From contig CBDDTI010000295.1 in NCBI GenBank assembly GCA_965233585.1, positions 192,418 through 256,417 on the forward strand: a stretch of 64,000 bases of DNA, read 5' to 3'. The DNA comes from a bacterium (GTDB lineage Bacteria; SAR324; NAC60-12). A program made the translations under genes and the position numbers. The stretch's first letter is position 1, and each line of letters starts with the position of its first letter. Shown piece by piece: positions 1-26,727 of this stretch. The notes under the pieces are model-generated. The model was not told where the DNA came from. It saw nothing but the letters and a program-made list of their open reading frames with translations, and made no database searches.

Positions 1-480
1 CAATTCAAAGTCATTGATCTACAGTCTTATCAAGATGTTTATTTGTGTGGTCCCAGAGGTATGATTGACGGATGCTTAGAAATTTTAGATGAACATGAAT
101 TTCCTCAAGCACAACTCCACTACGAGTTGTTTACTTCTACTACAATTTCGGCAAAACAGGTTCAACATCAATCCAGTCCAGAATTAAGGGAACATCAAAA
201 GCTGGCTCAAATCTCATTTCAATATTTAGGAGAAATTCATCAAATTGACTTTGTGGAAGATGACCACTCTATTTTGACTGCTGCAGCAAGACAAGGGCAT
301 CAATTACCTTATGCTTGTGCAGGGGGAGTTTGTGGAACTTGCCGCGCTAAAATCTTAAAAGGTTCTGCTCAGATGTCAGAAAATTACGCACTGGATCAAG
401 AAGATTTAGCAGAACATTTTGTGCTGACGTGCCAAGCGATTCCTACAACCGATGAAGTGTTTTTGAATTTTGATTATTGA
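1..480 (+). CDS. paaE: Phenylacetyl-CoA epoxidase reductase subunit (5' partial)
   Basis: Frame is open from base 1 (QFKVIDLQSYQDVYLCGP). NAD-binding YLCGP and HYELF motifs, C-terminal 2Fe-2S motif CAGGVCGTC...LTCQ, paa context. Confidence 0.88.
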   Translation, partial: QFKVIDLQSYQDVYLCGPRGMIDGCLEILDEHEFPQAQLHYELFTSTTISAKQVQHQSSPELREHQKLAQISFQYLGEIHQIDFVEDDHSILTAAARQGHQLPYACAGGVCGTCRAKILKGSAQMSENYALDQEDLAEHFVLTCQAIPTTDEVFLNFDY

Positions 481-506
481 AGTCAATCTTTTTTCTGATA
501 CTTGAT

Positions 507-1109
507 ATGCCATTCTATGAATTTGAAGGTGCGAAACCTGTGGTGAGTGATAAGAGCTATGTTCACCCCACTGCAGTGATTATAGGAGATGTTTGGATTG
601 CAGAAGATTGTTACATTGGTCCGTGTGCTTCTTTGCGTGGGGATTTTGGCAGAATCCGAATCTGTCAAGGTGCTAATGTACAAGATTGCTGCATCCTCCA
701 TTCCTTTCCAGAAAAAGAGCTCATCCTCCATGAAAACGTTCATGTTGGACATGGTGCCGTGATTCATAGTGCCGTGATTGAAAAAGATGCCATGGTGGGC
801 ATGCACGCTGTCGTTTTAGATCATGCTGTTGTAGGTGAGCAAGCAATCATTGCTGCAAATTCTACCGTGCCAACACATTGCCAAGTTCCTCCTAGAGTCT
901 TATTTGCAGGGACACCAGGGAAAGTGAAACGTGAGCTTTCTCAAGACAATATCCAAGCCAAACGGCTTGCAACTGAAGCTTACCATCAGCTAGCTCAACG
1001 ATCTTTAAATGGATTGCATGAAACAGAACCACTCAGAGAGGCATCACGCCAACGTCCTCAAATCCCTTGGCAAATCCAATTTGATGCCAATTTCAACATG
1101 AAACAATGA
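507..1109 (+). CDS. paaY: Phenylacetate degradation protein PaaY (hexapeptide-repeat, gamma-carbonic-anhydrase-like)
   Basis: MPFYEFEG..P.V...SYVHPTAVIIGDV...YIGPCASLRGDFG. ATG at 507 preferred over TTG at 477. Confidence 0.88.
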   Translation: MPFYEFEGAKPVVSDKSYVHPTAVIIGDVWIAEDCYIGPCASLRGDFGRIRICQGANVQDCCILHSFPEKELILHENVHVGHGAVIHSAVIEKDAMVGMHAVVLDHAVVGEQAIIAANSTVPTHCQVPPRVLFAGTPGKVKRELSQDNIQAKRLATEAYHQLAQRSLNGLHETEPLREASRQRPQIPWQIQFDANFNMKQ

Positions 1110-1169
1110 TTTCAAATAAGCAACTTCTTGATTTTGAATGTCGCTGAAAAAGATTCTATTCGTAAAATT

Positions 1170-1940
1170 ATGCCTATCCTTCAATTTTTGTATCACCAAA
1201 AACAAACTTTAGTCCTTCAGCTAACCAGTGAGCAACGTTATAACACCGTAGATGATGAAACGTTGAAACAATTAATAGATGCCTTACTTCAAGCAAATGC
1301 TGATTCATCGGTCAAAACCATGATCATTTATGGTGGAGATAAAAACTTTGCAGTAGGGGCAAACCTTCATGAATTGAAAGCTAAAAGTAAAGAGTATTTA
1401 CGAACTGATGAAAGGCGAAAAAACTGGCAACGTTTCCAGTTGTGTCAAAAACCGATCATTGCTGCGGTCAATGGATTAGCACTAGGAGCAGGCAATGAAT
1501 TGGTGATGAATTGCGACATTGTCATTGCAGGAAAGAAGGCACAATTTGGACAACCTGAAATCAATCTAGGACTCATACCAGGGGCAGGTGGAACACAAAG
1601 ACTGACTCATCTCATTGGAAAAAAACAAGCCATGCTGATGCTTTTGACAGGATTGACTCTTTCTGCACAGGAAGCCTTACAACATGGTTTGATTTCCAAA
1701 GTTTGTCAAGATGATCTGGTCTTAGAAGAAGCACTTGCTGTGGCAGAGACCATCAACCAAAAATCATCTGTTGCTGTTACTGCTGTTAAATCATGCGTTT
1801 CTCAAGTAGAACAACTTCCTTTGCAAGAAGGATTAGCCGTAGAATATCAAGCCTTTGTTGAGCTTGCAGACTCGCAAGATCGCACCGAAGGCATCAATGC
1901 TTTTTTAGAAAAACGCAAACCTCATTTTATTGGAAAATAA
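1170..1940 (+). CDS. paaF: Enoyl-CoA hydratase (2,3-dehydroadipyl-CoA hydratase)
   Basis: Crotonase motifs KPIIAAVNGLALGAGNEL and FGQPEINLGLIPGAGGTQRL. Start codon approximate. Confidence 0.82.
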   Translation: MPILQFLYHQKQTLVLQLTSEQRYNTVDDETLKQLIDALLQANADSSVKTMIIYGGDKNFAVGANLHELKAKSKEYLRTDERRKNWQRFQLCQKPIIAAVNGLALGAGNELVMNCDIVIAGKKAQFGQPEINLGLIPGAGGTQRLTHLIGKKQAMLMLLTGLTLSAQEALQHGLISKVCQDDLVLEEALAVAETINQKSSVAVTAVKSCVSQVEQLPLQEGLAVEYQAFVELADSQDRTEGINAFLEKRKPHFIGK

Positions 1941-1959
1941 TTCAAATCACTCAAATATT

Positions 1960-2760
1960 ATGGAAACTATTGATTTAGAATGGATTGAATCTGTTGCGAT
2001 GTTAACGCTCAACCGTCCTGATTCTCTCAATAGCATCAATCTCACAATGCACGAAGAGCTAGCCCAAGCGTTGAAACAAATCAAAACTTCTTCTGCACGT
2101 GTCATGTTGCTGACAGGAAAAGGTCGTGGATTTTGTGCAGGACAAGATTTAACCGACCGAACTGTTGCAGCTGATTCAAACTCCAAAAAAACAGAAACAC
2201 AAATAGATTTAGGAAAGTCTTTAGAAAAACACTACAACCCTTTAATCCGCACTCTTCAGTCTTTAGAGATTCCAATCGTTTGTGCAGTCAATGGTGTTGC
2301 CGCTGGTGCTGGAGTGTCTTTAGTTTTAGCATCTGATATTGTCTTGATGAGTAAAAAAGCCAAACTCACATTAGCCTTTAGCCGAATTGGATTAGTACCT
2401 GATTCGGGCTGTAGTTGGTTTTTGACACAATGTTTAGGAACTAAACGAGCATTAGCTCTAGCCATGTTAAGTGAAAGCATCACTGCAGAACAAGCTCAAA
2501 ACTGGGGAATTGCATGGGAAGTTTATCAAGAAGGCTCTTTACAAAAAGGAGCTATGGAATTTTGCCAAAAGCTAGCAGCGGCGCCCACCAAAGGTTTAGG
2601 ATACCTCAAACGATGTTTTGCGACTGCCGACACTTCCAGCTTAAACGAACAACTGAACCACGAACGAGAGTTTCAACAGCTTGCAGGAAGAACCAAAGAC
2701 TACCAAGAAGGCGTCGCAGCATTTCTTGAAAAAAGAAAACCCAAATTTACTGGAGAATGA
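1960..2760 (+). CDS. paaG: Ring-1,2-epoxyphenylacetyl-CoA isomerase
   Basis: GRGFCAGQDL, YNPLIR, GLVPDSG, GRTKDYQEGV; follows paaF. Confidence 0.88.
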   Translation: METIDLEWIESVAMLTLNRPDSLNSINLTMHEELAQALKQIKTSSARVMLLTGKGRGFCAGQDLTDRTVAADSNSKKTETQIDLGKSLEKHYNPLIRTLQSLEIPIVCAVNGVAAGAGVSLVLASDIVLMSKKAKLTLAFSRIGLVPDSGCSWFLTQCLGTKRALALAMLSESITAEQAQNWGIAWEVYQEGSLQKGAMEFCQKLAAAPTKGLGYLKRCFATADTSSLNEQLNHEREFQQLAGRTKDYQEGVAAFLEKRKPKFTGE

Positions 2761-4253
2761 ACAAGATGCCACAGCAAGCAGTCATCATTGGTGGTGGAGT
2801 CATGGGACGTGGCATTGCACAGACCTTTGTGCAAAATGGCTATACTGTCTCTATTGTTGAAAATCAAGCAGAACACGCTAAACAAATTTTAAAAATCCTT
2901 GAAAACTCTTGGCAAAAATTAGTAACACGTGGGAAATTTACCTCAAACCAGACACAACAATTTTTAGAACAACTGACAATCACTTCTGACCTTTCAGTTG
3001 TCAAACAAGCTGATGTTGTCATTGAAGCGGTGTTTGAAGACTTAGAACTGAAACAAAATATTCTGGCTCAAGTAGAACAAATGGCATCAGAGAACACTTT
3101 GACAGCTTCCAACACCTCTACTTTTTCTATCACTGCTCTTGCCTCTGCACTTCAAAATCCTCACCGTTTAGTGGGTTTGCATTTCTTCAATCCTCCTCCA
3201 GTTATGAGACTAGTTGAAGTGGTCAAAGGCTTACAAACTGATGAAACCATCATTCAACGAGCAATACAACTTGCTGAAAATCTAGGAAAACAACCTGTGT
3301 TGTGTCAATCCTTTCCCGGTTTCATTGTCAATCGCATTTGCCGTCCTTATTATTGTGAATCTTTCAAAATGCTAGATGAACACGCTGGCAGTATTAGCAA
3401 CCTTGATACAGCACTGGAAGGTTCTGGACTTTTTCCAATGGGAGTCTTTCGGCTAGTAGATTTGATTGGAGTAGAGACTAACTTTCGTAACACCAAATCC
3501 ATGTTTGAAGCCTTTTTTTATGATAACCGCTACAAACCTTCCTTCATTCAAGCAGAATATGTGAATGCAAAACGTTTTGGTCAAAAAGTAGCCCAAGGTT
3601 TGTACAGTTATCAAAACCATCAAGCCATGCGGCAAAGTGAATTTGTTCCAAAAAGTCAAATTTTTTCTGAAGAGGTTCTACTACAATCTACCGCAACTGC
3701 TCCTTTTTGGATTCAAAATTTACAAAACATTGCCAACCAAAAAGGAGTTGCATTGAACATGCAACAGGGAGCGAGTTCTTTTCTAAAAATTGGTTCAGTG
3801 CAAATGTTAGCAACTGATGGGCAACTTGCAGAAAGTCTATTGCCATGGAAGCAAATGCCTACCATCATCATGGATTGGATATTGAGTGAAAAAGCATCAG
3901 TTTTAGCCATTCAAGCCAATCCTTTAGTAGAAAACGAAATGCTAGAACAAGTAGCATCATTTTTTGATTCGCTTGGTATCCAGTTGGTTGTAGTTCATTC
4001 ACCTGCAATGGTGGTGATGCGGTTAGTAGTGATGCTCATCAATGAAGCCTTAGAGGCGATCCAACAAGGCGTGTGCAATGAGCATGATTGTAATCTTGCT
4101 TTGAGGCTTGGCATGAATTTTCAGTTTGACATCCTGACCCTAGCAGAGCAAATTGGCTATTCCAATGTGATGCAAATTCTTAAAAATTTGTTCCAACTGT
4201 TTCAAGATGAAAAATATCGTTCCTCCTTGAGATTAAGAACAATGGCAACTTGA
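2757..4253 (+). CDS. paaH: 3-hydroxyacyl-CoA dehydrogenase
   Basis: GGGVMGRGIA, EAVFEDLELK, SNTSTFSIT, GLHFFNP; about 500 aa with duplicated C-terminal domain. Confidence 0.88.
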   Translation: MNKMPQQAVIIGGGVMGRGIAQTFVQNGYTVSIVENQAEHAKQILKILENSWQKLVTRGKFTSNQTQQFLEQLTITSDLSVVKQADVVIEAVFEDLELKQNILAQVEQMASENTLTASNTSTFSITALASALQNPHRLVGLHFFNPPPVMRLVEVVKGLQTDETIIQRAIQLAENLGKQPVLCQSFPGFIVNRICRPYYCESFKMLDEHAGSISNLDTALEGSGLFPMGVFRLVDLIGVETNFRNTKSMFEAFFYDNRYKPSFIQAEYVNAKRFGQKVAQGLYSYQNHQAMRQSEFVPKSQIFSEEVLLQSTATAPFWIQNLQNIANQKGVALNMQQGASSFLKIGSVQMLATDGQLAESLLPWKQMPTIIMDWILSEKASVLAIQANPLVENEMLEQVASFFDSLGIQLVVVHSPAMVVMRLVVMLINEALEAIQQGVCNEHDCNLALRLGMNFQFDILTLAEQIGYSNVMQILKNLFQLFQDEKYRSSLRLRTMAT

Positions 4254-4265
4254 AGGATTGAACAC

Positions 4266-4703
4266 ATGACTATGAATTTATCTCAACAAGACATTGCTGA
4301 ACGTGGTGTCAAAACCATGCTAGCCAGTGATCAATGTTCTCATTCGCTGGGAATTGAACTACAAGAGATCAGGCAAGGTTATGCCAAAATGACCATGACG
4401 ATTAGGCAAGACATGGTCAATGGTCATAACATTTGTCATGGAGGAATGTTATTTACTTTGGCGGATTCTACTTTTGCTTGTTGTTGCAATGGACACAACC
4501 GTGTGACTGTTGCTTCTGCTTGTAAAATAGATTTTTTACGACCAGCTGTTTTAGGAGATCAACTCACAGCAATTGGTACAGAACGCAAAAGAGGCAAGCA
4601 GACAGGACTATGTGATGTTGAAATTTACAATTCTCACAATCAACTTGTTGCATTGTTTAGAGGCAATTCACACATTTTAGACCAATCTATTTTCAAAGAA
4701 TAA
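4266..4703 (+). CDS. paaI: Hydroxyphenylacetyl-CoA thioesterase (hotdog fold)
   Basis: NGHNICHGGMLFTLADSTFA and VALFRG motifs. Confidence 0.92.
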   Translation: MTMNLSQQDIAERGVKTMLASDQCSHSLGIELQEIRQGYAKMTMTIRQDMVNGHNICHGGMLFTLADSTFACCCNGHNRVTVASACKIDFLRPAVLGDQLTAIGTERKRGKQTGLCDVEIYNSHNQLVALFRGNSHILDQSIFKE

Positions 4704-4708
4704 TTACC

Positions 4709-5998
4709 ATGACCAATCTCACTCCCTTAGATGCAATTGAACGATCCAGCATTGATGAAATACGAAAAGTCCAGTTAGAAAGAATGCAATGGAGCATAAG
4801 CCATTGTTATCAAAATATCCCACATTATCAAAAAACCTTTAAGGCTCAAGGCATTCATCCTCAAGATTTGAAACAACTGGAAGATTTAAAGCATTTTCCT
4901 TTCACCGTGAAGGAAGACCTGCGCCAAAATTATCCGACAGGCTTGTTTGCTACACCAATGAAGGACGTTGTGCGTTTTCATGCTTCTAGTGGTACTACAG
5001 GCAAGCCAACCGTAGTAGGTTATACTCAAAAAGACATTGAAACATGGTCTCATTGTGTGGCAAGAAGTATCCGTGCAGCAGGAGGTGATGCACACAGCAT
5101 TGTTCACGTTTCTTATGGTTATGGTTTATTCACTGGTGGATTAGGAGCGCATTATGGAGCAGAAAAACTAGGGGCAACCGTCATTCCTGTTTCAGGAGGT
5201 ATGACAGGTCGTCAAATCCAGATCATTGCTGACCTCAAGCCAGACATCATTATGGTCACCCCTTCCTATTTTTTAAAGATCATCAGCGAATCTAAAAAAC
5301 ATGGAGTAGATCCACAACATTGGTCTCTCAAAGTCGCTATTTTAGGAGCAGAGCCTTGGACAGAAGCGATGCGTGAAGTCATTGAAACTGAGTCTTGCAC
5401 TCAAGCCACCAATATCTATGGTTTATCTGAAATTATTGGACCGGGAGTTGCTCAAGAGTGCTTAGAAACCCAAGATGGTCTTACAGTGTGGGAAGATCAT
5501 TTTTATCCTGAAATCATTGATCCTAACACCTTAGAAGTTTTGCCAGATGGTCAAGAAGGCGAGCTAGTTTTTACTACATTGACCAAAGAAGCAACACCTT
5601 TGGTTCGTTATCGTACAAGAGACCTCACCAAAATTTTACCCGGCACCTCAAGAACCATGAGGAGGATTGACAGGATTCTTGGCAGAAGTGATGACATGCT
5701 TATCATTCGTGGTGTCAATGTCTTTCCAACACAAGTAGAAGAACAAATCCTAAAAATTCCTGAATTGGAAAGCAATTATCAATTAGAAGTCGTACAAGAA
5801 GAAAATACCAATGCCCTGCATGTTCATGTGGAATTAAAGAATGCCAACCATGATGCCAAATCAATCAAACCGCATTTAGAACATTTGATCAAAGATTTCA
5901 TTGGAATTTCTGCACAAGTCAAAATCCAGCCTCAAGGCACGTTACCTGAATCACAAGGCAAAGCTGTGAGAGTGAGAAAAGCCAACCCGAGTTGCTAG
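4709..5998 (+). CDS. paaK: Phenylacetate-CoA ligase
   Basis: HASSGTTGKPTVVGYT, YGYGLFTGGLGAHYG, IYGLSEIIGPGVA, GRSDDMLIIRGVNVFP. Confidence 0.95.
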   Translation: MTNLTPLDAIERSSIDEIRKVQLERMQWSISHCYQNIPHYQKTFKAQGIHPQDLKQLEDLKHFPFTVKEDLRQNYPTGLFATPMKDVVRFHASSGTTGKPTVVGYTQKDIETWSHCVARSIRAAGGDAHSIVHVSYGYGLFTGGLGAHYGAEKLGATVIPVSGGMTGRQIQIIADLKPDIIMVTPSYFLKIISESKKHGVDPQHWSLKVAILGAEPWTEAMREVIETESCTQATNIYGLSEIIGPGVAQECLETQDGLTVWEDHFYPEIIDPNTLEVLPDGQEGELVFTTLTKEATPLVRYRTRDLTKILPGTSRTMRRIDRILGRSDDMLIIRGVNVFPTQVEEQILKIPELESNYQLEVVQEENTNALHVHVELKNANHDAKSIKPHLEHLIKDFIGISAQVKIQPQGTLPESQGKAVRVRKANPSC

Positions 5999-6150
5999 GT
6001 GATTCATAAAATTTGCACCATAGCCTAATTGCTGCGATTTTAAGCATAGCCATCAATGTTGAGAAGTGCTTGTCGTATCGTATTGCGATAGATCTGCCTG
6101 ATTGTTGGAGGTGACCCAACGCTTTCTCAATAGGTTTCCTAATGAGTTCT
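5995..6150 (-). pseudogene. IS5-family transposase C-terminal remnant
   Basis: IEKALGHLQQ..RSIAIRYDK...LMAMLKIAAIRLWCKFYES resembles the IS5/IS427-group tail (IERxFxxLKxxRRIATRYDK...AAIRLW). No N-terminal part is present. Confidence 0.65.
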
Positions 6151-6286
6151 GCTCTGTTTTGAGCATCGGCATCAAGACTTCCTGTACAAGCCTCAATCAA
6201 TTTGCTAACGGATAAAGAGTTGAGCCATGATTTTTTTAGCAATGATTCTGACTAAACCATGTGTTTTTGGATTGAGTTGTAGGTTG

Positions 6287-7276
6287 TTATTGCTTCTTAA
6301 CCACTTTTTGCTCAATGGTGCCAAAAATATTATTGCCTTGATCGTCAGTCATTTCAATTTTGACAGTGTCTCCAAATTTTAAAAAAGGTGTTTTGGGACT
6401 GCCTAATTCAATGGTTTCAATCATACGAGCTTCTGCCAAGCAACAGAATCCTTTAGAGGCATCTTTGTTAGAAATTGTCCCAGAGCCAATGATAGTACCT
6501 GCTTTCAGTGGACGAGTCTTGGCAGCGTGTGCAATGAGTTGAGCAAAATTAAACTGCATATCTACCCCTGCATTAGGAGAACCAAATGGCTCGTTGTTAA
6601 TCCAAGTTCTCAAAGGCAAATGCACTTTGTAATCCCTCCATGCACTGCCTAACTCGTCAGGGGTAACAAAAACAGGAGCAAAAGCCGTTGGAGGCTTGCC
6701 TTGCACAAATCCAAAGCCTTTAGACAGTTCAGTAGGAATCAAGTTCCGCAAGGACACATCGTTCAAAATGGTAATCAAAAGAATATAATCACCTGCATCT
6801 GCTTCACTGACTCCCATGGGGACATGATCAGTGATGACTGCCACTTCTGCTTCTAAATCAATGCCATAGTCTTCACTAACAACTTCAATATCTGAAGTAG
6901 CAGAAAGCAGGGGATCTGAGCCTCCTTGATACATGAGTGGGTCAGTTAAAAACTCTGGGGGCATCACGGCACCTCGTGCTTTCCGCACCAATTCTACGTG
7001 GTTTAAATAAGCCGAGCCATCTAACCACTGATACGCTCTGGGCAAAGGAGCAAGAAAGTTTTTTATCTCAAAAGGAGAGGGTCTTGGTTTTTCAGATGTG
7101 CCAGCTTCCAACTCTCCAGCTAAATATGACAATTCCAAGTGGGAGTCATCCCAATAGTCCAATGCTCTTTGCATGAAAGGGGCAATATGCAGGGCATGAA
7201 CATATTGTGTCAAGTTGCGATTGACGATGACTAATTGTCCATCTAGGTTTCCGTTATTGAATGTTGCAAGTTTCAT
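6287..7276 (-). CDS. Fumarylacetoacetate hydrolase family protein
   Basis: PLPRAYQWLDGSAYLNHVELVRKARGA, DPLMYQGGSD, DLEAEVAV, NDVSLRNLIP; lies downstream of hmgA. Confidence 0.88.
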   Translation of the reverse strand: MKLATFNNGNLDGQLVIVNRNLTQYVHALHIAPFMQRALDYWDDSHLELSYLAGELEAGTSEKPRPSPFEIKNFLAPLPRAYQWLDGSAYLNHVELVRKARGAVMPPEFLTDPLMYQGGSDPLLSATSDIEVVSEDYGIDLEAEVAVITDHVPMGVSEADAGDYILLITILNDVSLRNLIPTELSKGFGFVQGKPPTAFAPVFVTPDELGSAWRDYKVHLPLRTWINNEPFGSPNAGVDMQFNFAQLIAHAAKTRPLKAGTIIGSGTISNKDASKGFCCLAEARMIETIELGSPKTPFLKFGDTVKIEMTDDQGNNIFGTIEQKVVKKQ

Positions 7277-7373
7277 AATGATCTTTTAATTAAAAAATTA
7301 GGTTAAATTGAATCAATCGTCAGTCATCTCTTGACTCAAAGGTGTATAGATGACATCTACAACAACCCCACAA

Positions 7374-8222: not shown

Positions 8223-8332
8223 CTCGGTTTTATGGAAGCTAAGGTTTTAAAAATTATCATCTCTCATGCGGAGAGGCATTTTATCCGACTGTACGCATAA
8301 TAACATAGTAGATTCTGCCATTGAAAATTCCA

Positions 8333-9868: not shown

Positions 9869-9898
9869 ACTTGACTTGTCAAGTGTTTCATGTATAAC
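9869..9898 (+). promoter_or_regulatory. Putative sigma70 promoter overlapped by a palindrome
   Basis: TTGACT(9871)-16 nt-TATAAC(9893), with a perfect inverted repeat ACTTGAC-tt-GTCAAGT at 9869-9884, in the divergent hmgA/ABC intergenic region. Confidence 0.5.
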
Positions 9899-9937
9899 CA
9901 CTTTTTTCAACGTCTTAACATTTTCAAGGAGAAAAAT

Positions 9938-11122: not shown

Positions 11123-11135
11123 ATCAACTGAGAAC

Positions 11136-11990: not shown

Positions 11991-12037
11991 CCATTGAGTA
12001 TTGAGCAAGGTTTTTTATTTTCATTAGGAGATTAATT

Positions 12038-13993: not shown

Positions 13994-14011
13994 ATATTCA
14001 CTCCACATTAG

Positions 14012-16441: not shown

Positions 16442-16553
16442 CTTGTCATCTTTGCAAAATTACTTTTTAATCTATTGTTTTTTAGCTGAACGATAGTTTT
16501 ATGATTGTTATTGTTCATTTTTTATTCACAACCATTTAAGGAGAAACAATATT

Positions 16554-17504: not shown

Positions 17505-17612
17505 CTACTGCCTAAAAAACAACTTGAAACCTAGAATTATTACAGAAAATTTTTTGTCGTTTTAAAGTCATAACTTCTTAAATTGTGAAAAACTAACTCA
17601 TTCAGGTATAAG

Positions 17613-18914: not shown

Positions 18915-18923
18915 CTTAAAAAC

Positions 18924-20897
18924 ATGTCTATCTTTCCTCCACCTGAACTGGAAGATGGGGAGGCTCAAGATGTTGCCCCCCCTAAAACTGTTGAACATCT
19001 AGCCACTCAAGGCATTGTTCGCTATCCAGACTTAACGTCCAGAGTGGATTATGTTGAGACCATTCGCCAACTTTCAGACAGCCCTCATGGATTTTGCAAA
19101 CAGGCTTTAAGCCAAGAAGAAGCCAATCGTTCTGTCGTGATTGTCGGTGCAGGAATGAGTGGCTTGATTGCCGCTTATGAACTCAAAAGAGCAGGCTTTC
19201 AAAACTTGACCATTCTTGATGCAGGAGACATGAGTCAGTCTGAAACCCAAACCCAAGAACCTTTGAGCTTTAGCCGAACTTACACCACTGCTGAAGGTTT
19301 TGAGATAGGAGCAATGCGTTTTCCAGACAAAGCCAAGTTGTTTTGGCATTATGTTGCCACCCGTCCCAGTTTGAAAACTCAACCTGTGCAACCCTTTTCT
19401 AATCCCGGTCAAGTGCCAACCTTGCTCGTCTATCAAGGAGAATCCCACCTTTTTCAAAATCAAATCCAACCCCTTCCCCCCAAATTTTTGAATATCAAAA
19501 AAAGGTTTGACCGCATGGTGGAACATCTGATGAAAGATAAAACGAGCCTACAATGGACAACTTCACAATTTACAAAAGTGTTGTATCAAGAACAACTGAC
19601 TGAACAAGAACGCCACCAGATTAAAACCTACTGGAACGATTTTCTTTGTCATTTCAAAAACAAAAGTTTTTATGATGTGTTGATAGAGGAAGGACAATTT
19701 GATGAGGAAGCCGTCAATATCCTTTACACCATCGGTTTAGGCACAGGTCCTTTTGGTGCTTTGTTTGAAGTGGCATTTGCCGACATGTACCGCATTTTAA
19801 TTTGGCAATACACTCAAGAATACAGCCTTGCTCCTCATTGCACTGTACAAGGAATCACTCATGCTTTTGCACAAGATTTTAAGATTCGCACCAATACCAA
19901 TGTAACAGGGGTCTGGCGTTGTGAAGGCGGGCAAGTTGTCATTGAAACTAACACCTTAGAACAAGGCAAAGTGAACACAGTCCATGAAAAATATGACTAT
20001 GCCATCATTGCCACTTCTCATCGCAGTATGTCACAAATGATGGGGTTGGCTGACAGTAGCAAAAGCAATCCTGAACGTCTACTAAAAAGTCCATTTAATC
20101 CCTACCATACTTTTCCCAATGAAACGATTTCTCAAGAGGCAGAAGTTTTTTTAAAACGGCTGATTGATGCCTTGCAAAAGACGTTTATGATTGACGCAAC
20201 TAAAACTTTTGTCAGCCTCAAACAGCCTCCTTGGGAAGTCCCTGAACTCAAAGAAGACTGGCCCCGTATCCATGGTGAGCCTGTGCAAACCATCATCAGT
20301 GATACTTTATGCCAACAAAGTTATATCGTCACAACCAAAACAGGATATGGTTTGTTGTTAAGCTATGCTTGGGGAGATGAGTGTTCTCGTCAAGAAGGCT
20401 TGCAACATGTTCAACAGTCCTTGATTCCAGACTCATGGAAGGTGACATCAAACGTGCATGTCAATATCTTGCAACAAAGTTACAATGAACTGGCGTTGGG
20501 GGGAAAATCCACCACTGAAACCAAAGTGTTATACAATCTCATTCAAAAATGTAATGCAGGTCTGTCCCCTGAAAACATTGCCTGCTACACCTTTTTTTGG
20601 CAACAGGCACCGGGAGTCTATGGAGGGTTCAAACTCAACAAACCCAATCAACATGAAGCTGTAACAACGCTTGCTCATCAAAATGCAATCGCTCTGGCTT
20701 CTGATTCTGGTCAATCTTGGTTTCCTGAATCGTATCGTAAGATTTTTTTAGCAGGGGAGAGTTGTAGCTTTTACGGAGGATGGGTAGAAGGAGCCGCCTT
20801 TGCAGGAGTGAATGCTGCTGCTGGTGTCATGTATGAAATCAATCGTCATAAACTGCATGACAACGTTCGGAAGTTTGTGAGTCTGCCCAACGTCTGA
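18924..20897 (+). CDS. Flavin amino-acid oxidase/2-monooxygenase (phenylalanine oxidase / IaaM-like), paralog 2
   Basis: VGAGMSG, EIGAMRFP, GLGTGPFG, LLSYAW, GGFKLN, GGWVEGA; colinear with 12038..13993. Confidence 0.82.
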   Translation: MSIFPPPELEDGEAQDVAPPKTVEHLATQGIVRYPDLTSRVDYVETIRQLSDSPHGFCKQALSQEEANRSVVIVGAGMSGLIAAYELKRAGFQNLTILDAGDMSQSETQTQEPLSFSRTYTTAEGFEIGAMRFPDKAKLFWHYVATRPSLKTQPVQPFSNPGQVPTLLVYQGESHLFQNQIQPLPPKFLNIKKRFDRMVEHLMKDKTSLQWTTSQFTKVLYQEQLTEQERHQIKTYWNDFLCHFKNKSFYDVLIEEGQFDEEAVNILYTIGLGTGPFGALFEVAFADMYRILIWQYTQEYSLAPHCTVQGITHAFAQDFKIRTNTNVTGVWRCEGGQVVIETNTLEQGKVNTVHEKYDYAIIATSHRSMSQMMGLADSSKSNPERLLKSPFNPYHTFPNETISQEAEVFLKRLIDALQKTFMIDATKTFVSLKQPPWEVPELKEDWPRIHGEPVQTIISDTLCQQSYIVTTKTGYGLLLSYAWGDECSRQEGLQHVQQSLIPDSWKVTSNVHVNILQQSYNELALGGKSTTETKVLYNLIQKCNAGLSPENIACYTFFWQQAPGVYGGFKLNKPNQHEAVTTLAHQNAIALASDSGQSWFPESYRKIFLAGESCSFYGGWVEGAAFAGVNAAAGVMYEINRHKLHDNVRKFVSLPNV

Positions 20898-20976
20898 TGG
20901 ATACTTCCATCAAAGAAACTAAAGTCATTCGTCAATAAGCCGAGCGAGTCAATTCATTTTTTCAAATCAAACACTT

Positions 20977-22602
20977 ATGAAAAGTCCCCATTGGAGAGAA
21001 GTAGAACAAATGCGGTTTCAGCCTGTTCATGCCAAGCCTGCCCAAAGTGACATCATCATCGTCGGAGCAGGACCTGTTGGAATGAGCCTTGCCATTGATC
21101 TGGCACAGCGAGGCATCAAGAGTCTTGTCTTGGATGATGAAAACCGTGTTTCCGATGGCTCACGTGCGATATGTTGGGCAAGAAAAACATTAGAGATTTT
21201 CACAAGGTTAGGCATTGGTGAGACCTTGCGAGAAGAAGGCATCCAATGGACAACAGGCAGAGTGTTCCATCAAGACAAACTCATTTACAAACAACAACTC
21301 ACTCCTGACACTTTCCCTGAAAATCCTTTTTTTGTGAATTTTCAACAATCCTTATGCGAGTACCTGCTTATCAAACGTTGTGAAGCCTTGAACATTGAGA
21401 TTCGTTGGAAAAATAAGTTGATTGACTTTGAGCAAAATGAACAAGGAGTGTCGTTGCAAGTCCAAGCTCCAGATCAAAAGTATCAGCTTCAAACCAAGTA
21501 TTTGATTGCTTGTGATGGTGCAAGGTCTTTTGTGAGAAGGCAGCTGGGTTTGGAGTTTGAAGGTCAAAGATTCCGTGACCGCTTCTTGATTGTGGATATA
21601 GAAATGAAAGGGGAGTTTCCGCAAGAACGTTGGTTTTGGTTTGAGCCTCCTTTTCATCAAGGACAATCTACTTTACTGCACAAACAACCTCAAAATGTGT
21701 GGCGAATTGATTTTCAACTAGATGCCAACCAAGAAACCAGCAATCAAGAACTCAAAAACGAGCAAGATGAAGCCTCAATCGCTAAGAGAGTGCGTGCTTT
21801 TTTGGGACGTGATGACTTGGAGTTTTCTATTGTGTGGTTTTCCATTTATTCGTTCACTTGCCGTCGTTTGAAGAACTTTCGGCATGGCAATATCTTTTTT
21901 GCAGGAGACAGCGCCCATGTGGTGTCTCCATTTGGGGCAAGAGGAGGTAACGGAGGCGTGCAAGATGCAGAAAACTTAGCATGGAAACTTGCTGAAGTTT
22001 TGTCAGGGAAAGCACACCCCAAATTGTTAGACACTTATGAAGAAGAGCGGATTTCTGCTTGTGATGAAAATATCTTGCATTCTGCACGCACCACCGATTT
22101 TATGACTCCTAAATCCCAAAAATCGTATCAGTTGAGAAATGCTGTTCTCAAACTTTCACGTTTTCATCATTTTGCCAGCCGTTTAGTCAATGCAGGCAGA
22201 ATGAGCTTGCCACATTCTTATCAAGGGGCAAGCCTATCTGGTCTCCTTCCACCAAACACCACCATTGCCGCAGGCGAGCCTGCCATTGATGTCCCTTTGA
22301 CAAATGTGCAAGGAGAACCAACCTACTTACTCAGACACATTCAAAACTTCACCATTGTTGGATTTAGACGCCCACCTTTAGAAAAAGCCCTTGATTATGA
22401 TGTTCTCAACATCAATTCTACCGATGGCACAACAACTTTGAACGATGCAGAAGGTTTGTTAGCCAAGCACTACTTCAAACATCATAAACAAGGTGGTTAT
22501 CTTGTCTTTCGTCCAGACCAACATGTCTTAGGTGTCTGTTTAGAAGAGACTCCAGAACAAGCCAAGTCTGCGATTGAGAAAGTGAGAGCAGGGAAGTTTT
22601 AG
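20977..22602 (+). CDS. FAD-dependent aromatic monooxygenase (MhpA/MhaA-like, group A)
   Basis: VGAGPVG, ACDGARS, AGDSAHVVSPFGARGGNGG, C-terminal RPDQHV. Confidence 0.85.
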   Translation: MKSPHWREVEQMRFQPVHAKPAQSDIIIVGAGPVGMSLAIDLAQRGIKSLVLDDENRVSDGSRAICWARKTLEIFTRLGIGETLREEGIQWTTGRVFHQDKLIYKQQLTPDTFPENPFFVNFQQSLCEYLLIKRCEALNIEIRWKNKLIDFEQNEQGVSLQVQAPDQKYQLQTKYLIACDGARSFVRRQLGLEFEGQRFRDRFLIVDIEMKGEFPQERWFWFEPPFHQGQSTLLHKQPQNVWRIDFQLDANQETSNQELKNEQDEASIAKRVRAFLGRDDLEFSIVWFSIYSFTCRRLKNFRHGNIFFAGDSAHVVSPFGARGGNGGVQDAENLAWKLAEVLSGKAHPKLLDTYEEERISACDENILHSARTTDFMTPKSQKSYQLRNAVLKLSRFHHFASRLVNAGRMSLPHSYQGASLSGLLPPNTTIAAGEPAIDVPLTNVQGEPTYLLRHIQNFTIVGFRRPPLEKALDYDVLNINSTDGTTTLNDAEGLLAKHYFKHHKQGGYLVFRPDQHVLGVCLEETPEQAKSAIEKVRAGKF

Positions 22603-22680
22603 GCAAAAGAAACCGAATATTGATGACCTAAGTTGCTAGTAAATATTCTAAGTTTATGAGTTCACTGCCTAGTGTCTTTT

Positions 22681-24669
22681 TCAAGGAGTTTGCAAGTCGG
22701 TAATATGGCGGTAATACTCTAAGCACTCTGGATTGCCGATGGCTGACAGATTGCTAATCTGTTTGCCCATCACCACATCACGGATACAAATTTCTGATAC
22801 TTTGCCCGATCTAGTGCGGGGAATGTCTGGTACGGCAATAATTTTTGCTGGCACATGACGGGGTGTACAGGTGGTTTTAATGTGATTTTTTATCTGCTGT
22901 CTATACGCATCATGCAACTGCTGACCCTCTTTCATCACCACGAACAAAATCACCCGCACATCGTTTTGCCATGGTTGTCCAATCACTGCACTGTCCCTGA
23001 TTTTGTCAAAGGCGAGGACTTGGTTATAAATCTCTGCCGTGCCAATGCGGACACCGCCAGGGTTCAAGGTGGTATCGCTGCGCCCTTTAATCACATATCC
23101 AGTGGCGGTCTTTTCCACAAAATCTCCATGACACCAAATGTCTGGGTATTTTTTAAAATAAGCACTGCGATATTTTTGACCACCTGCATCGTCCCAAAAG
23201 TAGATGGGCATACTTGGAAATGGTTTGACGCAGACAAGCTCACCCACCCCATTACTGATAGGCGTGCCATGGTCGTCCCATACTTGGACAGCTTTTCCAA
23301 GCACAGGCGACACCAACTCGCCCCGATACACGGACAACAAAGGATTGCCCATTAAAAAACAACCGACAATGTCTGTTCCCCCAGAAAGCGAAGAAATATA
23401 CACCCCTGACTTGACATGTGCTTGCAGCCAATCAAACTGGTTTGGTGCCAACACAGATGCAGTTGACCCTATCGTGCGTAATTGTGAAAAATCGTATTTT
23501 TTGTTGGGTTGACAATGATGATTTTGTAACATCTCGTAGTATTTTGCTCCTGCCCCCACAAACGATGCTTTTTCCACACTGACATATTCCATTAACACGT
23601 CCATATTGGGATACAAGGGAGACCCATCGTACAGCAATAAGGTTGCACCACATATCAGTTGCCCTACCAACCAGTTCCACATCATCCACCCGCAAGTGGT
23701 ATAAAAAAAGACCCTATCGTTAGGCTGAATATCGCTGTGATACATTCCCTCAATGGCAAATGACAGCAACATTCCCCCCACGCCATGAACAATACATTTT
23801 GGTTTGCCAGTGGTGCCAGATGAATACATAATGAACACGGGGGCATTAAATGGCACTGGCACAAACATCATCTGTTGTGGCATGTAATCACAGATGATTT
23901 TTTCCCATGCCACATACTCATCGCCCATATGAGCTATGGAATCATCAGAATCATCGGCGGCAGTCTTTTTGGTCATGTCAAAATACACAACCTGTTTAAT
24001 TTCAGGGATGCTTGTCAGCACTTGTGACACCTTATCAAGGCTGTTGTGGAATTTCCCGTTATAGAAATATCCTGTGGCAGTAAATAATATTTTTGGTTGG
24101 GTACTGCCAAAACGGTCTACAATCCCGCTCACTCCAAAGTCAGGAGAACAAGATGTCCACACCGCTCCAAGAGCTGTCGTTGCCAGCATGGCAATCACTG
24201 CATGGGGACTGTTGGGGACAAACCCCGCTACCACATCGCCCTTGACTACCCCCGCATCTATCAAGTATTGTTGCACTTGTGACACTTGGGCATGCACCAT
24301 ATTCCACGACATGCGGTATGCTGTATTTGCTTCAGTTTTAAAGACGAGACAATCGTCATCGCCACACTTTTTTAACAGATTTTCGGCAAAATTTAAGGTG
24401 CTGTCAGTCAAAAACTGCCCGCCAATCATGGTATGGGGATTGTCAACAATCCGCCTACCTTTGTGATAAAAAATAAGCGGAATATGACCACACAAGAACT
24501 GCCAAAATTTTTCTACTTCAGTAATAGAAAAAGTATGCAAATCATCGGCATTTTGCAAGTTTAGCCCATATTGTGTGTTCAAACCTTGCATCAACCTGCC
24601 TATATTGCTGGTATGTGTGGCATCTGCAGGAGGACTACATATGGGAGTAGATAGACGTTGTTCTGTCAT
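22681..24669 (-). CDS. Acetoacetate-CoA ligase
   Basis: LNFAENLL, SCSPDFG, MYSSGTTGKPKCIVHG, YTTCGWMMWNW, SGGTD, GRSDTTLNPGGVRIG. Start placed at MTEQRL. Confidence 0.92.
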   Translation of the reverse strand: MTEQRLSTPICSPPADATHTSNIGRLMQGLNTQYGLNLQNADDLHTFSITEVEKFWQFLCGHIPLIFYHKGRRIVDNPHTMIGGQFLTDSTLNFAENLLKKCGDDDCLVFKTEANTAYRMSWNMVHAQVSQVQQYLIDAGVVKGDVVAGFVPNSPHAVIAMLATTALGAVWTSCSPDFGVSGIVDRFGSTQPKILFTATGYFYNGKFHNSLDKVSQVLTSIPEIKQVVYFDMTKKTAADDSDDSIAHMGDEYVAWEKIICDYMPQQMMFVPVPFNAPVFIMYSSGTTGKPKCIVHGVGGMLLSFAIEGMYHSDIQPNDRVFFYTTCGWMMWNWLVGQLICGATLLLYDGSPLYPNMDVLMEYVSVEKASFVGAGAKYYEMLQNHHCQPNKKYDFSQLRTIGSTASVLAPNQFDWLQAHVKSGVYISSLSGGTDIVGCFLMGNPLLSVYRGELVSPVLGKAVQVWDDHGTPISNGVGELVCVKPFPSMPIYFWDDAGGQKYRSAYFKKYPDIWCHGDFVEKTATGYVIKGRSDTTLNPGGVRIGTAEIYNQVLAFDKIRDSAVIGQPWQNDVRVILFVVMKEGQQLHDAYRQQIKNHIKTTCTPRHVPAKIIAVPDIPRTRSGKVSEICIRDVVMGKQISNLSAIGNPECLEYYRHITDLQTP

Positions 24670-24688
24670 AGTCTTTGAGCCTTTCTGT

Positions 24689-25846
24689 TTATCCATTTGA
24701 GCAGTTTTCAATGCACATGGCAACGCCCATGCCTCCCCCTACGCACAGGGTGGCAACGCCCCGTTTTTGACCAAGTCTGTGCAAAGTATGTGTCAAGGTT
24801 GTCAAAATACGGCTGCCACTGGCACCGATAGGATGCCCCAAGGCAACAGCACCGCCATTGACATTGACCTTATCCGTATCCCACCCCAGCAATCTATTGA
24901 CCGCTATGGCTTGAACCGCAAAGGCTTCGTTGGCTTCAATCACATCAATCTCGTTGAGATGCCACCCCGCCCGTTGCAGTGCCATTTGTACCGCCCCCAC
25001 AGGACCTATGCCCATCAGTTCAGGGGCAACGCCTGACACCCCATAGGACACAATCCTTGCCAAAGGCGAAAGACTATGACGATTGACATACTCTTCACTG
25101 CCCAATAACACCATTGATGCCCCATCGTTAATGCCAGAGGCATTGCCTGCGGTCACTGTGCCATTTTCTTTGTCAAATACAGGAGGCAAATCCTGTAAAT
25201 CGGTCAATGTTAGATTGTGGCGAATGTGTTGGTCAGTGGCAATGCCATTGACAGTCACGATTTCATCGTTAAAATAGCCTTGTTCGGTGGCAGTTTGGGC
25301 TTTCTGTTGCGATTGCAAGGCAAACACATCTTGTTCCTCCCGACCAATATCATATTTTTTTGCCAAGTTTTCAGCAGTTATGCCCATGTGTGTCTGCCCA
25401 ATGGCACACAACAAACCGTCCGTCAGCATCGTGTCCTTGAGTGCATCGGTGTTTTTTTGTGGATTTTTGCGGTCATAATAGGCACAGAACTGTGAGAGAC
25501 TCATGTTTTCTTGCCCACCGCTAAGTACACAGTCCAAACCACTTTCAATGCCTTGTACCCCCAAAATCACACTACGTAATCCCGACCCACACACTTGGTT
25601 AATGGTCAATGCTGGTGTAGATACGGGTATTCCTGCCGAAATAGCACTTTGACGGGCAGGGTTCATTCCCACCCCAGCGGTTAAAACCTGTCCCACAATC
25701 ACATCCTGCACTCTATCAGGTGCAGTGCCAGATTGCTGTAATACAGCCCTCATACAGACGGTGCCTAAGCACACAGCAGAGGTGTCAGCAAAGGTTTTCA
25801 TAAATCGCCCAATGGGCGTTCGTACAGCATGTAAAATATAGACCAT
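24689..25846 (-). CDS. Acetyl-CoA C-acetyltransferase (thiolase)
   Basis: NQVCGSG, NEAFA, GHPIGASG, LCVGGGMG. Confidence 0.95.
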   Translation of the reverse strand: MVYILHAVRTPIGRFMKTFADTSAVCLGTVCMRAVLQQSGTAPDRVQDVIVGQVLTAGVGMNPARQSAISAGIPVSTPALTINQVCGSGLRSVILGVQGIESGLDCVLSGGQENMSLSQFCAYYDRKNPQKNTDALKDTMLTDGLLCAIGQTHMGITAENLAKKYDIGREEQDVFALQSQQKAQTATEQGYFNDEIVTVNGIATDQHIRHNLTLTDLQDLPPVFDKENGTVTAGNASGINDGASMVLLGSEEYVNRHSLSPLARIVSYGVSGVAPELMGIGPVGAVQMALQRAGWHLNEIDVIEANEAFAVQAIAVNRLLGWDTDKVNVNGGAVALGHPIGASGSRILTTLTHTLHRLGQKRGVATLCVGGGMGVAMCIENCSNG

Positions 25847-25892
25847 AATGTGGCTCTTTTAGTGTTGATGAGGTTTTCTAACCCAAGGCTAG

Positions 25893-26102
25893 TCAATCAG
25901 GTTGCTGGGTGATTCGGTGAGCTTCTTCAACCAAGAATTTAAGACGTTCTGCATTGCCAACTTCATTGGCAAGTAAAAAAATCAAAGTCTGGCTGAATTG
26001 TGTAGATTGCTGCTCATCAAACGATTCATAAATATCAATCAACTGATGGTACAAGTCATCGGGGTTTTCTAAGGAATCAGGAATGGTTTGGTTAGTCTGC
26101 AT
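25893..26102 (-). CDS. Small protein, DUF2783/MhaB-like coupling protein
   Basis: PDDLYHQLID........S......LIFLLANEVG pattern; 69 aa from an ATG overlapping the end of maiA. Confidence 0.7.
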   Translation of the reverse strand: MQTNQTIPDSLENPDDLYHQLIDIYESFDEQQSTQFSQTLIFLLANEVGNAERLKFLVEEAHRITQQPD

Positions 26103-26727
26103 CAGGTTGTTGTTGAGGTTGTGCTTGTTGAAAAGCTTGCAGTTGCAAAGCATTGTTTTGAATCTGTTTTAAGCGAGGATAGGAAGACAAATCAACCTTC
26201 CAACGTTCGGCATTATACAACTGCGGAATCAGGCAAACGTCTGCAAGGGTGGGTTCATCACCAAAACAAAACAGGTTTTGGGGACTGACTTTCGCCTCAA
26301 GGATTGCAAAGGTTTTAGACATCCAATAGTTCATCCACTGCTGAGTCATCTCTTGCGTCAAACCATGTTCCTTTTTTAAATAATTCAAAACTCCTAAGTT
26401 GTTGATGGGTTGGACTTCCATGGCAATATCATAAGCCACAGATAGCACTTTTGCACGCAGAGTTAAGTCTTTTGGAATCAATGCAGGTTTGGGTTGTATA
26501 TGCTCCAAATAATCAATGATAACTAAGGATTGACAAAGACAAGTGCCATCATAGAGTTCCAAAGTAGGTAATACATTTGTTGGATTTTTCTGCTGATACC
26601 AACTTTGTTGATGCTCCCTTTTTAAGAGATTGACAGGCACTAATTCATGCTCAATCTGTTTCAAATTCAAAGCAATTCGCACACGATACGAAGAGCTAGA
26701 ACGCCAATAGGTGTAAAGTTTCATCAT
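26092..26727 (-). CDS. maiA: Maleylacetoacetate isomerase (zeta-class GST)
   Basis: LYTYWRSSSSYRVRIALNLK, QPINNL, ADVCLIPQLYNA. Confidence 0.95.
   Translation of the reverse strand: MMKLYTYWRSSSSYRVRIALNLKQIEHELVPVNLLKREHQQSWYQQKNPTNVLPTLELYDGTCLCQSLVIIDYLEHIQPKPALIPKDLTLRAKVLSVAYDIAMEVQPINNLGVLNYLKKEHGLTQEMTQQWMNYWMSKTFAILEAKVSPQNLFCFGDEPTLADVCLIPQLYNAERWKVDLSSYPRLKQIQNNALQLQAFQQAQPQQQPDAD

Follow-up and report, generated by a model that had tools for sequence, protein, structure and literature searches.

Textbook bacterial tyrosine catabolism proceeds by transamination and then through HppD. An amino acid to amide to acid logic is embodied by IaaM/IaaH, which serve hormone synthesis and are encoded on virulence or Ti plasmids; lysine 2-monooxygenase and 5-aminopentanamidase (DavB/DavA) make up a catabolic amide route, and a path from phenylalanine via phenylacetamide to phenylacetate is drawn in KEGG. 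Here we describe a 64-kb stretch of DNA from a SAR324 bacterium (NAC60-12; assembly GCA_965233585.1, contig CBDDTI010000295.1, positions 192418 to 256417), called the window below, whose first 26727 nucleotides hold a cluster in which two paralogous flavoenzymes, an amidase and an ATP-binding cassette (ABC) importer are found among genes for phenylacetate (paa) and homogentisate degradation. Judged from its sequence, this region would be a composite aryl-acetamide catabolic unit that also makes amides from aromatic amino acids, a reading to which we assign a probability of roughly 0.55. The window shares with IaaM/IaaH both the logic and the two protein families, but its oxidase is duplicated, an importer is joined to the pair and ring-cleavage genes lie around it. 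The amidase partner of the DavB/DavA type belongs to the nitrilase family, whereas that of the window is a member of the amidase-signature family.

Annotation of the window by open reading frame (ORF) calling, NCBIfam and Pfam found 23 genes in its left 27 kb (Table 1). Among them were all those named in an original prediction made for positions 1–26727 (paa genes, hmgA, FAH, maiA, acetoacetate-CoA ligase, thiolase, two flavoenzymes, an amidase, an importer and a hydroxylase). That list was accurate but not complete, since it omitted the gene of a metallo-beta-lactamase (MBL)-fold protein, a DUF2783 ORF, an Rpn gene and a PaaE fragment, and the position of flavoenzyme 1 inside the transporter operon had gone unremarked.

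According to the accessible part of a published account, phenylalanine oxidase (PAO), tryptophan 2-monooxygenase (TMO) and a lysine-active enzyme form a separate branch of the monoamine oxidase family that makes amides by oxidative decarboxylation, and three positions govern the size and charge of the pocket in this clade (PMC5832979). Both flavoenzymes of the window, which share 39% identity from end to end, are placed by sequence in this PAO/TMO/L-AAO-MOG clade of flavin amine oxidases. They carry the Amino_oxidase domain (PF01593, E 5e-17 and 6e-20) and a FAD dinucleotide motif, GAGxxG, at residues 73–78 (flavoenzyme 1) and 75–80 (flavoenzyme 2), in both cases after a long N-terminal stretch, and no signal peptide could be read from either sequence. 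Strong matches to solved structures (E 2e-18 to 2e-34) were limited to three for both enzymes, namely 3WE0, the lysine oxidase/monooxygenase (L-AAO/MOG) of Pseudomonas sp. AIU 813 and best match of flavoenzyme 1 (2e-34); 2YR4, the PAO proenzyme of Pseudomonas sp. P-501 (also solved as 3AYJ), best match of flavoenzyme 2 and second best of flavoenzyme 1; and 4IV9, a TMO. The next structures, ordinary L-amino-acid oxidases included, followed at E 1e-4 or worse for flavoenzyme 1 and ~6e-6 or worse for flavoenzyme 2. The expectation of amino-acid 2-monooxygenase-like enzymes was thus borne out, the best solved relatives being three members of the amide-forming clade.

In the accessible part of the same account the three pocket positions are occupied by Trp235/Asp238/Ala515 in the lysine enzyme, Phe244/Val247/Gly518 in TMO and Phe316/Leu319/Gly659 in PAO (PMC5832979). 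HMMER alignments, in which the numbering of all three references is checkable, place F269/L272/G608 of flavoenzyme 1 and F277/L280/G619 of flavoenzyme 2 at these positions, with Trp, Asp and Ala of the lysine enzyme replaced by Phe, Leu and Gly respectively. Both enzymes have R132 as the Arg of the GAMRFP motif (Arg143 of PAO, the binder of the alpha-carboxylate) and retain the GGW motif (607–609 with W609, and 618–620 with W620), whose Trp is part of the aromatic cage, so that Arg143, Phe316, Leu319 and Gly659 of PAO and the Trp that follows are all matched. With F/L/G in the pocket and no Asp as in the lysine enzyme, both sequences argue against a Lys/Arg-type pocket, a substrate preference that the original prediction had named as able to overturn it.

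Nine genes on the + strand (9890–22602) follow one another with intergenic gaps of −32 to 112 bp and diverge from hmgA over 270 bp, and the genes for maiA, the DUF2783 protein, thiolase and acetoacetate-CoA ligase converge on them from the right. Within this string the parts are mixed gene by gene. Flavoenzyme 1 lies between two permease genes, i.e. within the transporter operon, the MBL-fold gene separates the ATPase gene from that of the amidase, and flavoenzyme 2 starts 9 bp past the amidase and leaves a 79 bp gap to the FAD monooxygenase that follows it. The string appears to be a mosaic of an amidase-importer unit, a hydroxylase unit usual in homogentisate operons and two rare PAO-like enzymes. 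Because nine closely spaced co-directional genes mix parts of modules that are found separately elsewhere, linkage within 9890–22602 exceeds chance. The string is presumably co-transcribed; a promoter and terminator scan yielded sites no more frequent than in shuffles and was not used.

Homologues of flavoenzyme 2 (P0002), the hydroxylase (P0154) and the amidase (P0276), each ~80% identical, have the same longest contig of 31261 bases, so that these three genes probably stay together in at least one relative. It is improbable, in our view, that the neighbourhood is a coincidence, that is, an 'aromatic island' of abutting modules with no flux from the flavoenzymes into the paa and hmg pathways. 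Such an island would fit the Rpn-type mobile-element gene within the hmg unit, the separate paa unit and the spread in G+C over the region (0.376 to 0.468), but mixing at the level of single genes in one co-directional string is hard to obtain by chance, and the apparent company of the three homologues on the relative's contig likewise speaks for more than juxtaposition. The G+C content is 0.376 around flavoenzyme 1 (12000–14000) vs 0.43–0.47 over flavoenzyme 2, the hydroxylase, the ligase and the thiolase (18000–26000), a contrast compatible with parts of differing origin.

The flavoenzymes have very few close relatives. When 5.8 billion proteins were searched by word index, four came back (the query itself, a relative 80% identical and two that are 27–28% identical), and the flavoenzyme's own paralogue in the window was not among them. 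A profile search of 1.84 billion cluster representatives gave 305 clusters at E ≤ 1e-10 and 154 at E ≤ 1e-30, and except for the 80% relative nothing was more than ~33% identical to either flavoenzyme. Only nine distant loci (22–26% identity), with neither the source genome nor any close relative of it among them, emerged from a scan of 185579 species genomes with the flavoenzyme alignment, only IaaM-like relatives (20–28% identity) from plasmids, and only generic flavin amine oxidase or tryptophan 2-monooxygenase clusters from the ESM Atlas. In a FastTree phylogeny of 49 rows (the window enzymes and best-scoring representatives of at least 500 aa, together the first 45 of a 140-sequence set, plus four clade markers), flavoenzymes 1 and 2 and the 80% relative formed one clade (SH-like support 99). 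The group to which this clade belonged was weakly supported (90, drawn open) and included P0027 and P0103, both of the PAO family by their 2YR4 matches (E 3e-191 and 8e-207), and the shorter TMO/Lys-type proteins fell in another group. The window enzymes share the clade of PAO in the wider sense, but at ~23–27% identity to PAO-family representatives they make up a separate, very small clade of their own. In the two Pseudomonas loci scanned, out of five fetched for relatives of the flavoenzymes (P. lactis and P. veronii), the flavoenzyme gene (~605 aa) diverges from genes for an NCS1 transporter and a nitrilase-family amidohydrolase, in what looks like an uncharacterised unit that repeats the oxidase, amidase and transporter logic with other parts. 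Glycine-betaine monooxygenase genes adjoin this unit.

The amidase has GGSSGG at 116, Lys43 in VKD and GGSCRIPAS intact as read from its sequence, which we take to be the Ser-cisSer-Lys motifs of the amidase-signature family, and its best model is that of indoleacetamide hydrolase (PRK07488). Its nearest named relatives (38–45% identity) are auto-annotated as mandelamide amidase or indoleacetamide hydrolase, and the enzyme would act on aryl-acetamides. A synthesis of the auxin type, with one or both flavoenzymes and the amidase as an IaaM/IaaH-like pair making indole-3-acetate or a phenylacetate signal, seems highly improbable. The top amidase model and the kinship of the flavoenzymes to tryptophan 2-monooxygenase (E 2e-21 to 9e-27), with IaaM-like relatives on plasmids (23–27% identity), are what such a pair would show; the pair is, however, flanked by catabolic genes on both sides and comes with two paralogues and an importer, the flavoenzymes share little identity with IaaM, and the amidase scores under the IaaH cutoff.

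The importer misses all five Urt equivalog cutoffs and, from its sequence, is a relative of the urea transporter UrtABCDE rather than Urt itself. Its binding protein, with an RR-type signal read from the sequence, matched the structure 8TG1 at E 5e-51, urea binders at ~1e-41, AmiC at 1e-25 and aromatic-acid binders at 6e-23, and by these values stands nearer to urea and amide binders than to aromatic-acid binders; a look for literature on 8TG1 and on 8D2Z, a solved close relative of the MBL-fold protein, found nothing relevant. We opened the three plasmid loci with the best binding-protein homologues, out of 931 matching records (Variovorax boronicumulans, 59% identity; Burkholderia anthina, 51%; Rhizobium rhizogenes K84, 45%). 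All three hold a unit of iaaH-type amidase, binding protein, permease, fused permease-ATPase and ATPase, the last three being 42–53%, 42–44% and 43–45% identical, respectively, to their counterparts in the window. Since every one of these nearest plasmid homologues sits in an amidase unit, the importer is best described as of an amidase-coupled type, which sharpens its earlier description as amide-class. The plasmid units have the same five-gene make-up as the window, the fused protein included, with transporter parts 42–59% identical, but their amidase lies upstream, whereas that of the window lies downstream, beyond inserted flavoenzyme and MBL genes, and is just 32–38% identical to theirs. 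A fused permease-ATPase also occurs in a Ralstonia transporter that adjoins a hydroxylase trio of the kind described next.

Homogentisate-forming hydroxylases are, in the accessible parts of the accounts, multi-component enzymes with a large flavoprotein (PMC3053370, PMC9338888, PMC8058095). MhaAB of P. putida U, a 3-hydroxyphenylacetate 6-hydroxylase, is described there as a large flavoprotein with a small coupling protein, and its homologues adjoin hmgA1B1C1 in Burkholderia xenovorans (PMC3053370). In the 4-hydroxyphenylacetate 1-hydroxylase (HPAH/HPAC) of Delftia acidovorans, again as far as the accessible parts go, the hpaH flavoprotein makes an intermediate 'Z' that hpaC turns into homogentisate (PMC9338888, PMC8058095); cloned hpaH and hpaC yielded no homogentisate, and another DNA sequence was suggested as needed (PMC9338888). 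The window encodes a trio of FAD monooxygenase, MBL-fold protein and DUF2783 protein. The family of the first is very large and bears generic names only, with 7998 of 8000 scored proteins at E ≤ 1e-60. Eight plasmid loci out of 1065 matching records were compared with the window proteins by tblastn (coverage at least 0.5, E ≤ 1e-4); they are not a random sample, having been picked among the 25 best with an eye to taxonomic breadth and to annotation.

Hydroxylase homologues in these loci are 44–49% identical to the FAD monooxygenase of the window. Directly upstream, in all eight, lies a homologue of its MBL-fold protein (51–61% identical), and a DUF2783 gene follows the hydroxylase in seven, the unannotated L013 giving no match; hmgA lies within ~5 kb in six. 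Paroceanicella, Ponticoccus and Sinorhizobium fredii have a MarR gene and then hmgA-fahA-MBL-FAD-DUF2783, continued by maiA in the last two and, in S. fredii, by acetoacetate-CoA ligase next after maiA. The trio is thus widespread in homogentisate operons on alpha- and betaproteobacterial plasmids, where it is generically annotated, and there is nothing unusual in the hydroxylase step as such; the predicted association of an aromatic hydroxylase with homogentisate genes is in this way corroborated from elsewhere. All parts of the hmgA-fahA-MBL-FAD-DUF2783-maiA operons of S. fredii pSfreNXT3a and Ponticoccus alexandrii p-SCP3 occur in the window at 37–66% identity, the short FAH and acetoacetate-CoA ligase included, but the trio genes, adjacent on the plasmids, are spread over 9.5 kb in the window. 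Operons of that type have MarR regulators and TRAP transporters and are without flavoenzyme or amidase, whereas the window shows no transcriptional regulator gene in 1–27000; related hmg/hydroxylase operons have MarR or IclR genes.

The DUF2783 ORF of the window was found by tblastn with the plasmid DUF2783 proteins (E 2e-8), all of these proteins being 58–72 aa long; MhaB is said in a 2005 abstract to measure ~6 kDa. By its size and position the DUF2783 protein is the probable small component of the hydroxylase, and the FAD monooxygenase the probable large component of a homogentisate-forming hydroxyphenylacetate hydroxylase. No small ORF flanks the hydroxylase gene in the window, and another candidate for the small component, ORF 5919–6242, was rejected as it has no Pfam match. 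In the MBL-fold protein, HYHAVR (residues ~78–84) replaces HxHxDH in all six sequences aligned (window, L010, L011 and L015–L017), so that its metal site and chemistry may differ from those of hydrolytic MBLs. Taken together, the trio would be a multi-component homogentisate-forming hydroxylase acting on 3- or 4-hydroxyphenylacetate. Set beside it by description, MhaAB and HPAH/HPAC share its large flavoprotein near hmg genes, and their small or second component would correspond to the DUF2783 protein; the accessible parts of the MhaAB and HPAH accounts mention no MBL-fold partner, whereas the trio does include one, and this protein is a candidate for the missing part behind the failure of hpaH plus hpaC.

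The amidase-importer unit without a flavoenzyme on all three plasmids, and the hydroxylase/hmg unit without one in all eight loci, also bear on a simpler reading, in which exogenous aryl-acetamides (4-hydroxyphenylacetamide, phenylacetamide or mandelamide-like compounds) are scavenged and the flavoenzymes are otherwise employed or provide minor side entries. The Burkholderia anthina unit, which adjoins nitrilase-family and alpha-hydroxy-acid-oxidising genes, would suit it too. We hold this to be unlikely as a full account, as flavoenzyme 1 lies within the transporter operon and flavoenzyme 2 within 9 and 79 bp of the amidase and the hydroxylase, and scavenging overlaps with the composite unit proposed here and does not exclude it. 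Known members of the clade, moreover, in the accessible part of the account, produce just what the amidase needs (PMC5832979).

The central homogentisate pathway is encoded completely, with HmgA, MaiA and a FAH-family hydrolase, the first two above their equivalog cutoffs. The FAH-family gene misses the TIGR01266 equivalog (26.8 bits vs 375) and is 56% identical to the FAH-family gene that stands between hmgA and the MBL gene in the S. fredii plasmid locus. The Rpn gene, which is intact and separates the FAH gene from hmgA, a pair contiguous in other genomes, is an interloper with no pathway role, and its DNA had no match in the plasmid collection. Of the paa genes, the window holds E (in part), Y, F, G, H, I and K. 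Of the six that follow PaaE, two (PaaI and PaaK) score above the NCBIfam equivalog cutoff and four fall short of it, with a paa model still ranked first (second for PaaH). Genes A–D probably lie beyond the left edge and Z and J are absent from the window, much as had been anticipated.

No hppD and no aromatic aminotransferase is present among the ORFs of at least 100 aa in the entire 64 kb, which extends the same statement made earlier for the cluster, and neither a keto-acid decarboxylase nor an aldehyde dehydrogenase was found in the 64 kb; the sole aminotransferase is IlvE-like. A keto-acid route, in which the flavoenzymes form phenylpyruvate and 4-hydroxyphenylpyruvate, HppD encoded elsewhere makes homogentisate, and the amidase, importer and hydroxylase are unrelated, would draw on the confinement of the hppD negative to the window and on the oxidase activity that PAO and the lysine enzyme have alongside their monooxygenase activity, as the accessible part of the account states (PMC5832979). 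It leaves unexplained the tight mixing with an amidase and a hydroxyphenylacetate-type hydroxylase, and finds in 64 kb no hppD, decarboxylase or dehydrogenase to go with it; we rate it quite unlikely.

The composite unit would work as follows. Two cytoplasmic PAO-like flavoenzymes would decarboxylate L-Tyr and/or L-Phe oxidatively to 4-hydroxyphenylacetamide or phenylacetamide and, in parallel, the Urt-like ABC system would import such amides (less likely amino acids) from outside. The amidase-signature enzyme would free ammonia and the aryl-acetate. Hydroxyphenylacetate would be turned into homogentisate by the FAD monooxygenase with the DUF2783 and MBL-fold proteins, and homogentisate into fumarate and acetoacetate by HmgA, MaiA and the FAH-family hydrolase, with acetoacetate-CoA ligase and thiolase yielding acetyl-CoA; phenylacetate would pass to PaaK and the adjacent paa genes. 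This chemistry is the simplest one that uses every part. Each substrate and product in it, the amide rather than the keto-acid outcome, the assignment to Tyr and Phe and the roles of the DUF2783 and MBL-fold proteins are predictions, set on family membership, motif conservation, gene order and the occurrence of separate modules elsewhere, which are observed. The homogentisate branch is the better supported of the two, because flavoenzyme and amidase genes are mixed with the hydroxylase genes whereas the paa genes form a separate unit. The original prediction of an amide route feeding both pathways is partly supported, by gene mixing for homogentisate and by adjacency for the paa branch. A more specific version is possible, though doubtful: tyrosine and phenylalanine would both be degraded without aminotransferase or HppD, with one paralogue per amino acid, a single amidase that also takes imported amides, and a three-protein hydroxylase making homogentisate from 4-hydroxyphenylacetate.

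Several points weigh against the composite unit. As to the flavoenzymes, no characterised relative exceeds ~33% identity. The R-F-L-G-W pattern recurs in 92 of 140 alignment rows (the two window enzymes and 138 family representatives of at least 500 aa) and is thus the family default, weak as positive evidence, with no pointer to Phe or Tyr and no discrimination among Phe, Tyr and Trp; Trp or an aliphatic amino acid may also be the substrate. The ratio of oxidase to monooxygenase activity is unreadable from sequence, and the clade also acts as plain keto-acid-forming oxidases. As to the neighbours, the IaaH-like label fits the amidase in best model and intact motifs but not in score (414.1 bits vs an equivalog cutoff of 532), so that the enzyme is not filed as IaaH proper. 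The tie of the trio to MhaAB or HPAH/HPAC is one of architecture and context, not of sequence comparison. No flavoenzyme homologue was present in the three plasmid transporter loci, and neither flavoenzyme nor amidase homologue in the eight hydroxylase loci. Outside the window, flavoenzyme, amidase and hydroxylase were seen combined just in one or a few ~80% relatives, which are too close to provide independent conservation. As to the pathways, the paa genes (to 5998) are a separate transcription unit ~4 kb off, past the divergent hmgA-FAH genes, so that adjacency is what suggests the phenylalanine branch, and the absence of hppD holds within the 64-kb window, whereas the gene may exist elsewhere in the genome.

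Table 1. Genes of the cluster (1–26727) and other features of the 64-kb window; cutoffs are those of the model named.
Feature	Position	Strand	Evidence or description
PaaE C-terminal part, reductase of phenylacetyl-CoA epoxidase	1–480	+	TIGR02160 E 1.3e-41, profile positions 200–352 of 352; Fer2; gene exceeds left end of window
PaaY-like hexapeptide protein	477–1109	+	TIGR02287 top match, 237 bits < cutoff 319.6
PaaF-like enoyl-CoA hydratase	1128–1940	+	NF007239, 283 bits < cutoff 371
PaaG-like isomerase	1930–2760	+	TIGR02280, 326.7 bits < cutoff 345
PaaH-like 3-hydroxyacyl-CoA dehydrogenase	2757–4253	+	TIGR02279, 423.8 bits < cutoff 669, second-ranked; PRK08268, 462 bits
PaaI thioesterase	4266–4703	+	TIGR02286, 146.5 bits > cutoff 118.9
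PaaK phenylacetate-CoA ligase	4709–5998	+	TIGR02155, 648.1 bits > cutoff 646.3
Short-type FAH-family hydrolase, probable pathway FAH	6287–7276	-	Pfam FAA_hydro_N_2 and FAA_hydrolase
Rpn / PD-(D/E)XK putative transposase-nuclease	7374–8222	-	TIGR01784, 172 bits > cutoff 52; PF12784
HmgA, homogentisate 1,2-dioxygenase	8333–9619	-	TIGR01015, 670 bits > cutoff 511
Periplasmic binding protein, Urt/Fmd/AmiC-like ABC importer	9890–11122	+	UrtA model, 227 bits < cutoff 493
UrtB-like ABC permease	11091–11990	+	TIGR03409, 228.6 bits < cutoff 250
Flavoenzyme 1, PAO/TMO/Lys-MOG clade, 651 aa	12038–13993	+	Amino_oxidase PF01593; 3WE0 2e-34, 2YR4 3e-29, 4IV9 9e-27
Fused permease-ATPase, UrtC-UrtD-like, 580 aa	14012–15754	+	TIGR03408, 189 bits < cutoff 296; TIGR03411, 214 bits < cutoff 304
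UrtE-like ABC ATPase	15755–16441	+	TIGR03410, 172 bits < cutoff 286
MBL-fold protein	16554–17504	+	PF00753; PDB 8D2Z E 2e-120
Amidase-signature amidase, IaaH / mandelamidase-like	17613–18914	+	PF01425, 262 bits; PRK07488, 414.1 bits < cutoff 532
Flavoenzyme 2, paralogue of flavoenzyme 1, 657 aa	18924–20897	+	Amino_oxidase; 2YR4 6e-32, 4IV9 2e-21, 3WE0 2e-18
Class A FAD monooxygenase, 541 aa	20977–22602	+	PRK08132, 630.6 bits > cutoff 416; PF01494
Acetoacetate-CoA ligase	22681–24723	-	NF002937, 824 bits > cutoff 639
Acetoacetyl-CoA thiolase	24689–25846	-	TIGR01930, 439 bits > cutoff 241
DUF2783 small protein	25893–26102	-	69 aa from second ATG, ORF open from 26153; PF10932 E 2.2e-11, 43.8 bits > cutoff 25
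MaiA, maleylacetoacetate isomerase	26092–26727	-	TIGR01262, 259.5 bits > cutoff 171
RND efflux system	from 27222		right of the cluster
fn3 / chitinase-N-like protein	33894–35807	+	637 aa
Kelch-repeat protein	37180–41232	-	1350 aa; many Kelch repeats, fn3 and laminin-G domains
IS1-family transposase fragment and adenine DNA methyltransferase	41262–43177		fragment of 152 aa; methyltransferase apparently split, 41937–42386 and 42383–43177
IlvE-like aminotransferase	46816–47805
Sugar-modification block	48136–57567	-	NeuB-like synthase, PseF-like cytidylyltransferase, two SDR genes, polysaccharide lyase family 8 protein, GT92-like glycosyltransferase
HI0074/MntA-type nucleotidyltransferase toxin-antitoxin pair	49757–50475		within the sugar-modification block

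Beyond the cluster, the Kelch-repeat and fn3/chitinase-N-like proteins are likely to be secreted or displayed at the surface and have no connection with the catabolic genes. The RuvB protein is 57–64% identical to counterparts from Firmicutes and Proteobacteria alike. The transposase fragment adjoins the methyltransferase, and the sugar-modification block is broken by the toxin-antitoxin pair and by a DUF29 gene.

The enzyme logic of the proposed unit is known already, from IaaM/IaaH, from lysine 2-monooxygenase with its amidase and from the isolated PAO, and of its three modules two occur widely. The novelty would lie in employing the amide logic as a gene-encoded entry by which tyrosine, and perhaps phenylalanine, reaches the homogentisate and paa pathways, with an amide importer alongside. 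We found no description of the catabolic gene context of PAO in the openly readable literature, nor, by full-text search judged on titles and the starts of abstracts, of amide-forming chemistry wired to Tyr/Phe ring-cleavage genes, in a search that extended neither to the subscription literature nor, with it, to the primary papers on PAO, MhaAB and HPAH.

The trio supplies specific candidate genes for hydroxyphenylacetate-to-homogentisate activities, on the genetics of which the readable literature is thin; were the more specific version of the route true, the three would represent the complete set of genes long sought for 4-hydroxyphenylacetate 1-hydroxylase. If the composite unit is real, bacterial tyrosine catabolism would have, besides the textbook route, a second, oxygen-driven entry to homogentisate, in which nitrogen leaves as ammonia at the amidase step, and the same genes would also consume aryl-acetamides from the environment.

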